Shown here: positions 2,186 through 54,047 of the stretch, piece after piece
Layout: the number at the start of each line of letters is the position of its first letter
Position numbering within the stretch: the first letter of the stretch is position 1
Assembly: GCA_951406725.2 (NCBI GenBank)
Contig: OX597842.1
Coordinates: 7,750,001 to 7,814,000, forward strand
Direction: 5' to 3'
Origin: Octopus vulgaris
Taxonomy: Eukaryota
DNA: 64,000 nucleotides
Position numbers and translations under genes: made by a program
Notes under the pieces: model-generated
The model's input: only the letters and a program-made list of their open reading frames with translations
Database searches by the model: none
What the model was told of the DNA's origin: nothing

Positions 2186-2275
2186 CATTTCCTTGTGGTT
2201 TGGATAATACGCTTGGTCGATCAATGGGAACTTGTCCGGTCCAAGTTTCTTTTGGATCTGGATTAAGTGTGCCAT
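2186..2275 (-). CDS. Syn: Synapsin exon 5 (90 nt); gene continues beyond window start
   Basis: ccacag|ATG GCA CAC...GAA ATG|gtgagt encodes MAHLIQIQKKLGPDKFPLIDQAYYPNHKEM, preceded by a long polypyrimidine tract. Confidence 0.96.
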
Positions 2276-3195: not shown

Positions 3196-3346
3196 CACCC
3201 AAGGTTTATCTTGAAAGTTGTAAATGGAATCCATAGAATTAATACTAGGAACACCGCCATAATGGAACCCCATGATCAAGTTACGCCAGTCCTCACAAGC
3301 GTCACGCACATGTTGTCTGACGAGCACAAAGTCTGGCTTGAAAGAC
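3196..3346 (-). CDS. Syn: Synapsin exon 4 (151 nt)
   Basis: ctgtgcag|G TCT TTC AAG...TGG GTG|gtaagt encodes (R)SFKPDFVLVRQHVRDACEDWRNLIMGFHYGGVPSINSMDSIYNFQDKPWV. Most of this is visible at the start of ORF 2488..3327. Confidence 0.97.
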
Positions 3347-6608: not shown

Positions 6609-6700
6609 CTGACAACTCTGGTGCCATTCCGCAATACTTGAATGTCGACCATGGTCCCTTGGTCTGTGTAGGCAGCAACATTGATTTCAGGAAACTCTGC
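6609..6700 (-). CDS. Syn: Synapsin exon 3 (92 nt)
   Basis: cttccag|GCA GAG TTT...GTT GTC AG|gtaggt encodes AEFPEINVAAYTDQGTMVDIQVLRNGTRVV(R). Confidence 0.96.
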
Positions 6701-8854: not shown

Positions 8855-8912
8855 CTGCTCTATGCGTATGTCCCAGTCACCAAATAGCTTCTTACCGCGG
8901 AAATATTTCGAC
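8855..8912 (-). CDS. Syn: Synapsin exon 2 (58 nt)
   Basis: ttgacag|G TCG AAA TAT...GAG CAG|gtgagt encodes (W)SKYFRGKKLFGDWDIRIEQ. The phase matches exon 1. Confidence 0.96.
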
Positions 8913-17659: not shown

Positions 17660-17990
17660 AGAAATAGCAGTCTAATTTTTCTCAAATCACACATTAATGT
17701 CTTCCAAAACAAGAAGACCGAGTGAGGATGAGCACATATTAAATTATGTAGTCTTAGATACACTGTGCCTGATTTAAAAGAAATGGGCCAGGCCTCTGCT
17801 GGAGCATCTCTTGATCATAGCTCTGCCAGATTGGTGCCTGGACTGACCAAGTGACCATCACCACCATCACTGCTGCTGCTACTACTACTACTACTACTAC
17901 TACAAATAACAAAAAGATATAAAACATATAAAAAATCCCTCCACCCCACCCCTATAAAATAATCCCAAGGAACAAAAATAGGGGCCTTAC

Positions 17991-18271
17991 CAGTCGGTGT
18001 GGGGATCGTCAATGACAAGGAGGGTCTTACATCGGTCCTTGTTGACATTTGACCTCTGACCTGAGAATATGCCCTTGGCAATCCCGACCGCGCTGGTCTT
18101 CGATGGGGAACTGGGCGCACTCGGCGAAGGCCCCTTCCGTATCGGAAGCACGGGGACCTGGCCTTGCTCTTGGGCATCACGTAGCTCGCCCTGGAGGTCA
18201 CCTGAGCTGAAGCGTCTCCGGAGGAAGCTGACTCCCGTCGAGAAGTTGTCCTTGAATGTTGAGAACGAAAT
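17991..18271 (-). CDS. Syn: Synapsin coding exon 1 (domains A, B and start of C); putative non-AUG (ATT) start
   Basis: Hand translation: ISFSTFKDNFSTGVSFLRRRFSSGDLQGELRDAQEQGQVPVLPIRKGPSPSAPSSPSKTSAVGIAKGIFSGQRSNVNKDRCKTLLVIDDPHTD(W). It contains the synapsin domain A motif FLRRRFSSGDL, an SP-rich domain B and the domain C start LLVIDDPHTDW. It ends TG|GTAAGG (phase 2) and is CpG-rich relative to the window. The 5' boundary is inferred. Confidence 0.95.
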
Positions 18272-19080
18272 TTTGACGGGTTTTGTTGGAACGATTTAAG
18301 GGAAAAAATGAGAAAGACTTTTGGAGAGAGAAAAAAAAGGAAGGAAGAGGGGAAAGAATTGTTTGTTTTGTTGTTTTTCTTTTTGTTAAATATGAGACAG
18401 ACAGACAGAGAAAGGAAAGAAATGGAAGGATGACCTTTTTTAAAAAAAATTGAAGGAGGATTGTAGAAGGCCCCTGAAGAAGTAAGTTTTGATCTTTTGT
18501 TTTTTAAATAAAAGAGAAATGATGGAGAAAATTGGAGCCAAAAGATGTCCAGAAGAAGGAATCAGGCGTTTTCTGTATCTTTTTAGATGAAAGATTGAAG
18601 AGCTAAAGGCATAGGTGAAGGAGAGGAGGAGAAGGTGAAGAATGTAGAGAAAGAAGGAGGGAGTTATAATAGTGGCAGTAGGAGGAGAAGAGAAAGTAGG
18701 AGGTGAAAATTAGAGAGGAGGAGAATTTGGAGAAAGGAGGAAAGAGTAAAGGGTAGGAGGTGCAAAGCAAGAGGAGAGAGGGAAAGAGTAGGAGATTGTG
18801 GGTGTGGCTAGGTAGGAAGCAAGGAGGGAGGAGGGTGGTAAGGAGGTAGATAGGTAGGTAGATAAAGAGAGCGGTGGGAGGAGCAACAGGGAAGAAGTGT
18901 GAGGGGGAGAGAAAGAGGGTGAAGTAGGAAGACTTTGAAAGGTTAAGAGTGAAAGAAGAAGGAACTTGAACAGGAATTGTTAAACCGATTCTTTGTTGAT
19001 AGAGAGGTTATTGTAGTTCAGGCTCTTGTTGCATTCACAGGTCCTTAGCTGTTGAGTTTTTCCCTTCTTTTTTAGCAACC
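18272..19080 (-). other. Pyrimidine-rich putative 5' leader / proximal promoter of synapsin
   Basis: Repeat-free, CT-rich (minus strand) stretch directly upstream of exon 1. No minus-strand ATG was seen for ~340 nt upstream of the ATT. The TSS cannot be determined from sequence. Confidence 0.4.
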
Positions 19081-19428
19081 ATACACACAGATATATGTAT
19101 ATATAATTTTATATATACATATATATGTATATATATCTATGTGTCTTTCGTTCTTTGACAGCCCTTTTTCTCTCTCTCTCTCTCTGTTAAATTCTTCTTT
19201 CACTCTTTCTTTCTATCCACCTTCACTCTCTGCCTCTGTATGTATGTATCTCTCTCTTTGTGTTTATCTCTCTCCCTCTCTCTCTCTCTTTCAATTTCTG
19301 TCTTCCTTGGTTGTGGTTACAATCTGGTGTAAATCCAATCTTCAGCTACAGCAGCGCCACCTAGAATCAAAGAAAAGAAAAAGAAATGAAGATAAGATAA
19401 TAATCTATTGCAATACACAAACATGCAA

Positions 19429-22632: not shown

Positions 22633-23339
22633 TTGGGTCGTCCAGAAAGTTTGTGCCGATTTATAGTAGCTTACCTTTCGACTTATTTTAGAACATGGTT
22701 GAGTCCATAAAATAGGATTTGACTACATCTCCAGTTAGAGCACAGTTAAAGCTATCTTTTCATGGAAGAAGGTTTATGTTCCTATAACCTGTGTTAATTA
22801 TGTAACCCTTTAAAATGGAAGATAAGAAAGGTCATTTTCAGCACTTGATGCTTTGGGAACCAGACAAAAATTGCTGCAGCTCAGCTGGAATGTGTTACCC
22901 CACCCTCCATATTCACCAGATAGTGCTCCTTCGGATTTCCACTTATTCAGGTCTCTGCAGAATAGTCTTAATGGTAAAAATTTCAATTCCTTGGATGACG
23001 TAAAAAGATACGTTGATGAATTCTTTGTCTTGAAACCACCTCAATTCTGGGAAGAGGGTATTTTCAAGTTAAAGGAAAGATGGAGACGCATTATGCAACA
23101 AAATGGTTCATATTTGGTTGATTAAAAATGTAATGGCAAGTATTTATTGACCTTGATGAATTCTTTGCCATGAAACCACCTCAATTTTGGGAAGAGGGTA
23201 TTTTCAAATTAAAGGAAAGATGGAGATGCATTGTGCAACAAAATGGTTCATATTTGGTTGATTAAAAATGTAATGGCAAGTATTTATTGATCTTTTTCTT
23301 TCGTTTAAAAAATCGGCACAAATTTTCCAGACAACCCAA
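22633..23339 (+). mobile_element. Non-autonomous mariner deletion derivative, copy 2 (140-bp internal duplication)
   Basis: Same TIRs and TA. The N-terminus MEDKKGHFQHLMLWE is fused out of frame to the C-terminus TRQKL...NGSYLVD. Confidence 0.93.
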
Positions 23340-51582: not shown

Positions 51583-52194
51583 TATATATAATTCTATATC
51601 AGTCTTCATAAATCTCTCCCTCTCAATATATTTACCCAACTTTTTACCAGTCTCTCTCTACATATATGTATTATCTCTCATGCATTGCCTCCATTTTGTT
51701 TTAAACTTTGTCTTCTAATGTTTATTTTAATTTTATCACAGCTATTATGCGCAAATCCTATTTTCGGATTGAGTAAAAATGATCAAACGTTAAATCACTG
51801 TAAGATTTTTATAAAATCTTTCTGAAATAAATGAATTACAAACTTGGATTCGGCTTGAAAATGTATATCAATAAATGAAATTTGAAATGAAATCTTAAGA
51901 GCCAGGATAAGAGGAAGAGGAAAGAATGTCTCCAGCATAAGATGAAAGGAAAAGGGGGGGGGGGGAGAGAAAAAGCAGAGAGAGAAGAGCAGAAGATAGG
52001 ATTACAGTCAGAATTGCAGATGTTACGGATGATCAAAATAACCTTAAGCAGACAAAGCAATTGAGAATGTCAACTATCCAGACAAGGAGACAGGAAGAGG
52101 TAAGCAGTGGGACTGAACCCAAAACCATCTGGTTGGGAAGCAAACTTCTTACCACACAGCCATACCTGCACCTATGTGTGTATGTATATATACA

Positions 52195-52218
52195 TATATA
52201 TGTATGTATGTATGTATG

Positions 52219-52252
<34 letters not shown>

Positions 52253-53362
52253 TGTATGTATGTATGTATGTATGTATGTATGTATGTATGTATGTATGTA
52301 TGTATGTATGTATGTATGTATGTATGTATGTATGTATGTATGTATGTATGTATGTATGTATGTATGTATGTATGTATGTATGTATGTATGTATGTATGTA
52401 TGTATGTATGTATGTATGTATGTATGTATGTATGTATGTATGTATGTATGTATGTATGTATGTATGTATGTATGTATGTATGTATGTATGTATGCATGTA
52501 TGTATGTATGTATGTATGTATGTATGTATGTATGTATGTATGTATGTATGTATGTATGTATGTATGTATGTATGTATGTATGTATGTATGTATGTATGTA
52601 TGTATGTATGTATGTATGTATGTATGTATGTATGTATGTATGTATGTATGTATGTATGTATGTATGTATGTATGTATGTATGTATGTATGTATGTATGTA
52701 TGTATGTATGTATGTATGTATGTATGTATGTATGTATGTATGTATGTATGTATGTATGTATGTATGTATGTATGTATGTATGTATGTATGTATGTATGTA
52801 TGTATGTATGTATGTATGTATGTATGTATGTATGTATGTATGTATGTATGTATGTATGTATGTATGTATGTATGTATGTATGTATGTATGTATGTATGTA
52901 TGTATGTATGTATGTATGTATGTATGTATGTATGTATGTATGTATGTATGTATGTATGTATGTATGTATGTATGTATGTATGTATGTATGTATGTATGTA
53001 TGTATGTATGTATGTATGTATGTATGTATGTATGTATGTATGTATGTATGTATGTATGTATGTATGTATGTATGTATGTATGTATGTATGTATGTATGTA
53101 TGTATGTATGTATGTATGTATGTATGTATGTATGTATGTATGTATGTATGTATGTATGTATGTATGTATGTATGTATGTATGTATGTATGTATGTATGTA
53201 TGTATGTATGTATGTATGTATGTATGTATGTATGTATGTATGTATGTATGTATGCATGTATGTATGTATGTATGTATGTATGTATGTATGTATGTATGTA
53301 TGTATGTATGTATGTATGTATGTATGTATGTATGTATGTATGTATGTATGTATGTATGTATG

Positions 53363-53396
<34 letters not shown>

Positions 53397-53730
53397 TGTA
53401 TGTATGTATGTATGTATGTATGTATGTATGTATGTATGTATGTATGTATGTATGTATGTATGTATGTATGTATGTATGTATGTATGTATGTATGTATGTA
53501 TGTATGTATGTATGTATGTATGTATGTATGTATGTATGTATGTATGTATGTATGTATGTATGTATGTATGTATGTATGTATGTATGTATGTATGTATGTA
53601 TGTATGTATGTATGTATGCATGTATGTATGTATGTATGCATGTATGTATGTATGTATGTATGTATGTATGTATGTATGCATGTATGTATGTATGCATGTA
53701 TGTATGTATGCATGTATGCATGTATGCATG

Positions 53731-53764
<34 letters not shown>

Positions 53765-53826
53765 TGTATATATGTATGTATGCATGTATGTATGTATGTA
53801 TGTATGTATGTATGTATGTATGCATG

Positions 53827-53858
<32 letters not shown>

Positions 53859-53897
53859 CATGTATTTATGTATGCATGTATATATGTATGTATGTAT
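52195..53897. repeat. (TATG)n tetranucleotide array, ~1.7 kb
   Basis: Directly visible. Confidence 0.98.
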
Positions 53898-54047
53898 TTG
53901 TGTGTGTGTGTGTGTTTGCCCCTCACCATTGCTTGACAACCGATGTTGGTATGTTCATGTCCCCATAAGTTAACAGTTCAGCCTAAGAGACCGATAGAAT
54001 AAGTACTAGGCTTACAAAGAAAAAAATTTATCTTATATATATATATA

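Follow-up and report, generated by a model that had tools for sequence, protein, structure and literature searches.

Full-length protein can depend on a conserved non-AUG codon in a strong context, as in eIF4G2/NAT1, whose near-cognate start is deeply conserved, and in TEAD1, which starts at AUU. The arrangement proposed here for octopus synapsin resembles both in these respects, and differs from them in that synapsin is a presynaptic structural protein and in that lineages vary both in the codon used and in whether a second AUG is present.

A non-AUG start is not new for the synapsin gene, since it has been published for both fly and octopus. FlyBase lists CUG as the start of Drosophila Syn in a table citing Klagges 1996 (PMC4528330, available in part), and in the accessible part of Diegelmann et al. 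2006 (PMC1660579) Edman degradation gave the CTG-encoded leucine as the first residue of fly synapsin. The fly gene is like that of octopus in having no AUG before domain A and in a start that aligns residue for residue with an octopus ATT; it differs in using CUG rather than AUU, in the leucine reported as first residue, and in a further conserved Cys-rich stretch upstream in holometabolous insects.

For octopus, the available portion of Maiole et al. 2019 (PMC6817820) reports a non-AUG isoleucine start, named as the codon that is ATC 18295 in our numbering, which follows the window (the whole stretch of 64,000 nucleotides of Octopus vulgaris DNA that was analysed). In that portion the argument for ATC is the preceding stop only, a phenylalanine start is given for Loligo, and the non-AUG trait is said to be found in molluscs only. 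Our analysis concerns the same gene, with their cDNA matching from 18480, the same TAA and the same conclusion of a non-AUG isoleucine. In contrast to that report, the comparison here points to ATT 18271 and not ATC 18295, the conserved isoleucine of Loligo comes 13 residues after its 'Phe start', and arthropods and other groups share the site. What this analysis adds is the assignment to the ATT codon and its deep conservation at the nucleotide level. No report of the AUU assignment, of nucleotide conservation across phyla or of a two-start architecture was found among the papers listed by the literature searches, whose coverage did not extend to the original fly, squid and Aplysia cloning papers, and neither 'start codon' nor 'methionine' was found in the text of Candiani 2010.

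The synapsin locus and the frame of its first coding exon

The window contains the 5' half of the single octopus synapsin gene, on the minus strand. The translation of exon 1 is 100% identical to O. bimaculoides synapsin and exons 2-5 match the same protein, while the DNA equals the published O. vulgaris cDNA from 18480 on and exon 4 carries the O. vulgaris GVPS, not the O. bimaculoides GVTS. An exon 1 query gave one match genome-wide, on which ground a second copy of the exon with an ATG was rejected, and PF02078 likewise gave one match genome-wide, above the cut-off and in exon 4. The gene is laid out as follows:

17991..18480, minus strand: exon 1, the first coding exon, with coding sequence 18271-17991 and an AUG-free leader that reaches at least 18480 in cDNA; donor GT at 17990
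18206..18226, minus strand: core of domain A, FLRRRFS, with the PKA/CaMKI serine at 18208-18206
8855..8912, minus strand: coding exon 2, which holds a +1-frame stop, TAG 8862-8860
6609..6700, minus strand: coding exon 3, with the first in-frame ATG, 6652-6650, in GGGACCATGG
3196..3346, minus strand: coding exon 4, domain C, with the PF02078 match
2186..2275, minus strand: coding exon 5, with an alternative donor 15 nt on that gives the VSNLW insert of Syn8.2

The hallmarks of the synapsin family are present, namely domain A with its RRxS kinase site (FLRRRFSSGDL from 18226) and, through the match in exon 4, domain C (PF02078/PF02750). The PKA/CaMKI serine is site 1 in the accessible part of PMC6817820, where the octopus cDNA protein also contains domain E, whose genomic position lies beyond the window edge. 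No other genes are evident upstream, the 31 stop-to-stop ORFs of at least 150 aa in the window being nearly all microsatellite readouts or overlaps with synapsin exons. The window is rich in microsatellites, with a tetranucleotide ATGT/ACAT array of about 1.8 kb at about 52150-53950, and at 23013-23294 it holds two tandem 140-bp copies, 95% alike, which are possibly a transposon remnant.

On the minus strand the start region reads TAA (18298-18296) ATC GTT CCA ACA AAA CCC GTC AAA ATT (18271-18269) TCG TTC TCA ACA TTC AAG GAC, and the frame is open from the TAA through FLRRRFSSGDL to the donor at 17991/17990. No ATG occurs in any frame from 18611 to 18178 on this strand, and the first in-frame one, in exon 3, is residue 130 counted from the ATT and falls within domain C. 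The elements of this region are:

18296..18298, minus strand: in-frame TAA, 8 codons above the ATT, the last of 9 in-frame stops below 19360 and also present in published cDNA clones
18293..18295, minus strand: ATC, the initiator of Maiole et al. 2019 and a rival start, with T at -3 and not conserved
18272..18277, minus strand: start context GTCAAA (A at -3, C at -4), compared across ATT loci and with the genome's own ATG contexts
18269..18271, minus strand: ATT (AUU), the proposed initiation codon, at position -15 from the Phe of FLRRRFS
18233..18271, minus strand: 13-codon protostome N-terminal extension ISFSTFKDNFSTG, predicted to be amphipathic and Ser/Thr/Gly-rich; conserved with synonymous change
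18230..18232, minus strand: GTC (Val) at the vertebrate/amphioxus start-Met position, with no AUG (alignment in the accessible part of PMC6817820, file 4)

The first-pass annotation, which had proposed initiation at this ATT, had already noted the in-frame TAA above the synapsin frame, the CAAA-ATT context and a first in-frame ATG lying in exon 3 inside domain C, and each of these was recovered, the TAA in genomic sequence and published cDNA clones alike. An ATG in place of the ATT, which by its own account would have undone the proposal, was not seen; the codon is not an assembly error, because ATT also stands at this place in the published genome of O. bimaculoides and in cDNA of O. vulgaris.

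The in-frame near-cognates below the stop are ATC 18295, ATT 18271, AAG 18253 and ACG 18238, and a purine at -3 together with U in the second position is found at ATT 18271 only, the other three having T at -3. The context G[CT]CAA[AG]-ATT belongs to 1 of the 1573 minus-strand ATTs of the window, and the shorter CAAA-ATT to 11 of the 1573. For comparison, distinct ATG contexts were taken from the genes for histone H3, H4/H2A and tubulin in this genome, three families and so not independent; a purine at -3 is found in 28 of 28 and C at -4 in 15. The accessible part of PMC2241899 gives the Drosophila start consensus as ACAACCAAAAUG and U at +4 as generally preferred in invertebrates; the octopus ATT has U at +4, not G.

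The codon at position -15 in related sequences

A metagenome scan with the exon 1 alignment yielded at least 42 loci, from 25 of 64 parts, and 41 of them carry the domain A motif; codons were counted from the Phe of FLRRRFS, the octopus ATT being -15. Among the 41 motif-bearing loci listed, codon -15 encodes isoleucine in 16, always as ATT (16/16), and is ATG in 10, which are of a paralogous type, and the other 15 have either ATG at -13 (11 loci) or a Met near -2 (4 loci). In the ATT loci among the matches listed -3 is A in 16/16 and -4 is C in 15/16; in the ATG loci listed -3 is A in 4, G in 5 and C in 1. In 7 of the 16 ATT loci listed the context is AAG-ATT, which places an AG directly before the codon.

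The 16 ATT loci correspond to 12 distinct sequences in about five lineages, 10 of the 16 being near-identical close relatives and L012 more distant. Two of those listed are bivalve-like (L002 and L006, 77-86% to Mercenaria and Mya), one is arthropod-like (L032), L035 is unplaced, and the 12 related loci form a clade that we would, on a weakly drawn placing, call probably annelid, because Helobdella is the nearest named match of the ATG-type paralogue in the same assemblies. The other exon 1 isoleucine codons of five representative loci are ATC in 9, ATT in 3 and ATA in 2 (ATT 3/14), and at that frequency the chance of ATT in five lineages, the window excluded, is about 0.0005, rising to 0.03 at a generous 0.5. 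ATT is not the sole invariant synonymous site, since C at codon -13 is found in 13/13 and A at codon -12 in 12/13. Codon -12 (window 18262-18260) ends in A in 15 of the 16 ATT loci listed, whether it encodes Ser, Thr or Ala, versus 3 of the 10 ATG loci, and this A possibly belongs to a wider nucleotide context for AUU initiation. As many as three types of exon 1 occur in a single assembly, distinguished by ATT at -15, by ATG at -15, or by an ATG at -13 followed by another at -2 (L003/L025, L007/L015/L040 and L008/L042 are examples), and these are likely paralogues that resolved the start differently. At the vertebrate-Met position the Val codon varies among relatives (GTC/GTT/GTG), so it is not a start.

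The stops above the ATT bear directly on the published octopus start. In seven of the loci listed (L008, L009, L010, L011, L013, L014 and L032) an in-frame TAA lies just 3 codons above the ATT, and in L003, L008, L009 and L011 there is neither an AG nor another near-cognate between the stop and the ATT, so that nothing else can start the frame. Initiation at the ATC 18295-18293, with a product IVPTKPVKISF..., is the published reading, and AUC is a near-cognate with G at +4, would be met first by a scanning ribosome and is common to O. vulgaris and O. bimaculoides; yet IVPTKP is unconserved even in squid (FFFDLFFQTAK), the T at -3 departs from the purine of all 28 histone and tubulin contexts, and the preceding stop is, in the part of PMC6817820 at hand, the only argument offered. 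The evidence favours ATT 18271, as judged from these alignments, and we regard the ATC as an unlikely main start, a minor share of initiation there being possible.

At the protein level 190 sequences were compared, isoforms and cluster members included; 47 without the motif were dropped, and of the 143 with it 104 have at least 15 residues above. Residue -15 in these 104 is Ile in 53, Leu in 24, Met in 17 and another residue in 10, and in 74/76 cases with Ile or Leu there it follows Thr, Asn or Lys, whose codons begin with A, as an A at -3 would require. In a profile search of 50% clusters, with 33 usable among 140 new matches, the same position is Ile in 14, Met in 6, Leu in 3 and another residue in 10. 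D. melanogaster isoform E (P0174), xNFSSFKSSFTSNVNFLKRRF, begins exactly at -15, its first residue standing at the ATT position, so that the fly N-terminus cited in the first-pass annotation was right, and two other Drosophila models read Thr-Leu there. The homology of the octopus ATT start with the fly CUG start is well supported by this alignment. The Loligo cDNA reads FFFDLFFQTAK-ISF with no Met, both Patella and Lottia are represented by partial models that have Ile at -15, and the RefSeq models of O. bimaculoides and Patella are flagged as partial and lack a Met. Against this pattern, contig proteins P0002, P0006 and P0050 are called with an upstream Met, although Loligo has Leu where P0002 has Met.

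What had been put forward at the outset, deeply conserved near-cognate initiation in protostome synapsins, stands as regards the homology of the AUU and CUG sites of octopus and fly, but not as a uniform trait, since the lineages form a mosaic: Met occupies the site in proteins of Aplysia, Elysia marginata, Littorina, Babylonia, Nucella, Helobdella, Trichuris and Soboliphyme, enoplean nematodes included, and many lineages, bivalves and Helix among them, keep a second in-frame AUG 13 codons down. Coding conservation starts at the codon itself in molluscs and in the loci listed (those with the stop 3 codons up included) and further upstream in holometabolous insects. Specifically, a CxxxC segment is conserved above -15 in 49 of the 68 arthropod predictions with at least 30 upstream residues, almost all of them holometabolous, and the -15 codon of Holometabola is therefore at least sometimes internal. 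A pattern search of these protein predictions found a Lys/Asn/Thr-Ile pair 15-23 residues above -15 in 48 of the 49, with no Met between (P0077-P0166) and little conservation further up. The pair looks like a second Ile-codon start, itself a candidate near-cognate, which makes -15 just one of the N-termini in insects, and the Cys-rich stretch is a candidate palmitoylation signal.

Taken with the locus itself, the marks of a near-cognate start are a codon one base from AUG in the strong context GTCAAA-ATT, an in-frame stop upstream with no in-frame AUG in genomic sequence and published cDNA clones, and ATT conserved at the nucleotide level with ATG at the same position in relatives and CUG in the fly. 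We put the probability that AUU 18271-18269 is the initiation codon of octopus synapsin at roughly 80%, an estimate made from sequence comparison.

Continuity of the messenger and other possible starts

The published 218-219 clones, from brain and ovary, are unbroken from 18480 to 18093 (primers 218F, 18480-18461, and 219R, 18093-18112) and run through both TAA and ATT, so that 18271-18300, which the initial proposal took to be part of the messenger, is probably exonic. Primer 200F (18289-18270), which extends into the ATT, was used together with 201R, located past exon 5 and beyond the window's exons. Sampled words of 17990-18700 were all present in 14 presumed-RNA runs, which we do not count as evidence. 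The following positions matter for splicing and editing:

18229, minus strand: A read as G in some cDNAs (Ser to Gly), a likely A-to-I recoding site
18251..18252, minus strand: candidate acceptor AG, ttcaag/GAC, not supported as the main acceptor, the codons above it being conserved coding sequence
19361..19362, minus strand: strong-looking acceptor with 18/20 pyrimidines, a candidate start of exon 1 about 1.09 kb above the ATT

Position 18229 is G in Syn-long, Syn-short and the 218-219 clone consensus and the genomic A in Syn8.2. This is likely an A-to-I edit just before FLRRRFS, a shared polymorphism or unspliced RNA also being possible explanations, and the 218-219 clones are likely RNA-derived because they carry the change. 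The same Ser/Gly switch is seen in squid, where the Loligo cDNA has Gly, and in decapod-like contigs, with Ser in P0054 versus Gly in P0055 and P0056, and it is this recurrence that makes an edit likely; the site parallels the edited PKA motif of fly synapsin. At another position, -11, the Loligo cDNA also has Gly and the decapod-like contigs have Ser. If the acceptor at 19361 were used, the leader would contain four short upstream AUG ORFs (19120, 19082, 19034 and 18612).

Across phyla the protein encoded by exon 1 is conserved while its codons change synonymously, and this weighs against a main product made from the in-frame AUG 6652 of exon 3, which would lack domains A, B and the start of C and would leave exon 1 translated little or not at all. 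The context of that AUG is optimal and the 384-aa O. bimaculoides model (P0053) starts there, but four out-of-frame AUGs, one with G at -3, come before it, and a protein begun there would be missing some of the folded C domain. We consider such a start quite improbable, more so than one at the ATC.

Slightly less probable still is an upstream AUG exon spliced or trans-spliced into exon 1, or A-to-I editing that makes an AUG or removes the TAA. The first-pass annotation had named the splicing of an AUG exon into ttcaag/GAC (18251/18250), as the sole available acceptor, as the event that would overturn its proposal. The AG at 18252-18251 is indeed the only one between the TAA and codon -4 (ACG), and is in frame, three more AGs below the TAA (18232, 18228 and 18216) being out of frame; the leader may also reach beyond the 18480 shown in cDNA. 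However, an exon joined at any acceptor above 18298 would run into in-frame stops (9 below 19360), conserved coding sequence continues above 18250, and the AG at 18252-18251 is missing in the other 12 distinct ATT sequences; given these stops and a published cDNA that crosses the region, splicing to an AUG exon is unlikely. As regards editing, it is extensive in cephalopods, and 42 nt downstream of the ATT there is an A-to-G difference, but the TAA is intact in the cDNA clones and 18600-18200 contains no in-frame ATA, which rules out the creation of an AUG by this route. Altogether we give either event very little credence. Least probable of all is a start at ACG 18238-18236, which is in frame and precedes the old Met position by two codons, or a start spread over several near-cognates, for although ACG is a near-cognate with G at +4 and would restore a vertebrate-length N-terminus, it has T at -3, is ACG in just 2 of 13 distinct ATT-type sequences and leaves the conservation of 11 codons upstream unexplained.

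Proposed initiation at AUU and its possible consequences

With AUU 18271 as the start, cap-dependent scanning would likely proceed across an AUG-free stretch of at least 340 nt, and part of the ribosomes would initiate at the AUU in its GUCAAA context, giving a protein predicted to begin (M)SFSTFKDNFSTGVSFLRRRFS. Protostome synapsins would then start 13 codons above the vertebrate start, which would add an amphipathic, Ser/Thr-rich segment just before the PKA site. The predicted helical moment of this extension is 0.42-0.56 over 18 residues in 11 homologues, with shuffle p < 0.05 in 10/11, these homologues being related and not independent. It may be comparable to membrane-curvature sensors.

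In many lineages a weak upstream AUU is followed by an in-frame AUG, and two forms would result, one long and one short. The second AUG has been lost in cephalopods, limpets and others, where any full-length molecule therefore has to begin at a non-AUG codon; little protein would then be made, in an amount that depends on start-codon stringency (eIF1/eIF5). Such sensitivity is expected of the octopus start because, in mammalian cells, AUU use is lowered by eIF1 and non-AUG use is raised by eIF5 (PMC3326321, available in part). The octopus gene would thereby share an AUU start and sensitivity to stringency with the bacterial infC/eIF1/eIF5 feedback described in the same partial source. It differs in that its product, synapsin, has no role as an initiation factor and hence neither closes an autoregulatory loop nor controls how stringently its own start is chosen.

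Most ribosomes that scan past the AUU would be captured at the next AUG, which would act as a sink in octopus:

18175..18177, minus strand: first AUG below the ATT, in the +1 frame, with 79 codons and its stop, TAG 8862-8860, in exon 2; two more AUGs, at 18048 and 18032, are also out of frame

Both this out-of-frame AUG of exon 1 and the end of its frame in exon 2 had been anticipated by the first-pass annotation, together with a role in dosage control. The latter suggestion did not survive comparison, neither the position nor the length being conserved among 13 sequences: the first downstream AUG is in +1 in 11/13, at 31-97 nt, with genomic ORFs of 2-120 codons. The +1 frame is also free of stops across coding exon 1 (18561-17815, minus strand, 248 codons in genomic sequence), which is not the case in most relatives. 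A downstream hairpin is common for near-cognate starts and not required; none is conserved across the 13 sequences (consensus structure -1.93 kcal/mol, no covariation), and an octopus-only stem enclosing the AUU, with z -2.65 in 1/19 windows, was taken as chance.

The ATT assignment, if right, moves the N-terminus published for octopus synapsin by eight residues and also corrects the mollusc-only claim. A conserved non-AUG start would explain why database models of invertebrate synapsins are partial, truncated or fitted with unrelated N-termini, and would put a neuronal gene on the short list of near-cognate starts conserved across phyla. More tentatively, and as something we hold to be possible rather than probable, the observations could be joined into one reading, in which a weak AUU start would have been kept for more than 500 million years as a control point in protostome synapsins. 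It would add a vesicle-binding amphipathic helix by the PKA site and set the ratio of long to short isoform where the second AUG survives, while in cephalopods, limpets and most arthropods all synapsin would depend on low start-codon stringency; Holometabola would have added a second, upstream Ile-codon start, giving a Cys-rich and possibly palmitoylated form. If this joint reading were true, the size of the presynaptic vesicle pool would be tied to the activity of eIF1 and eIF5.
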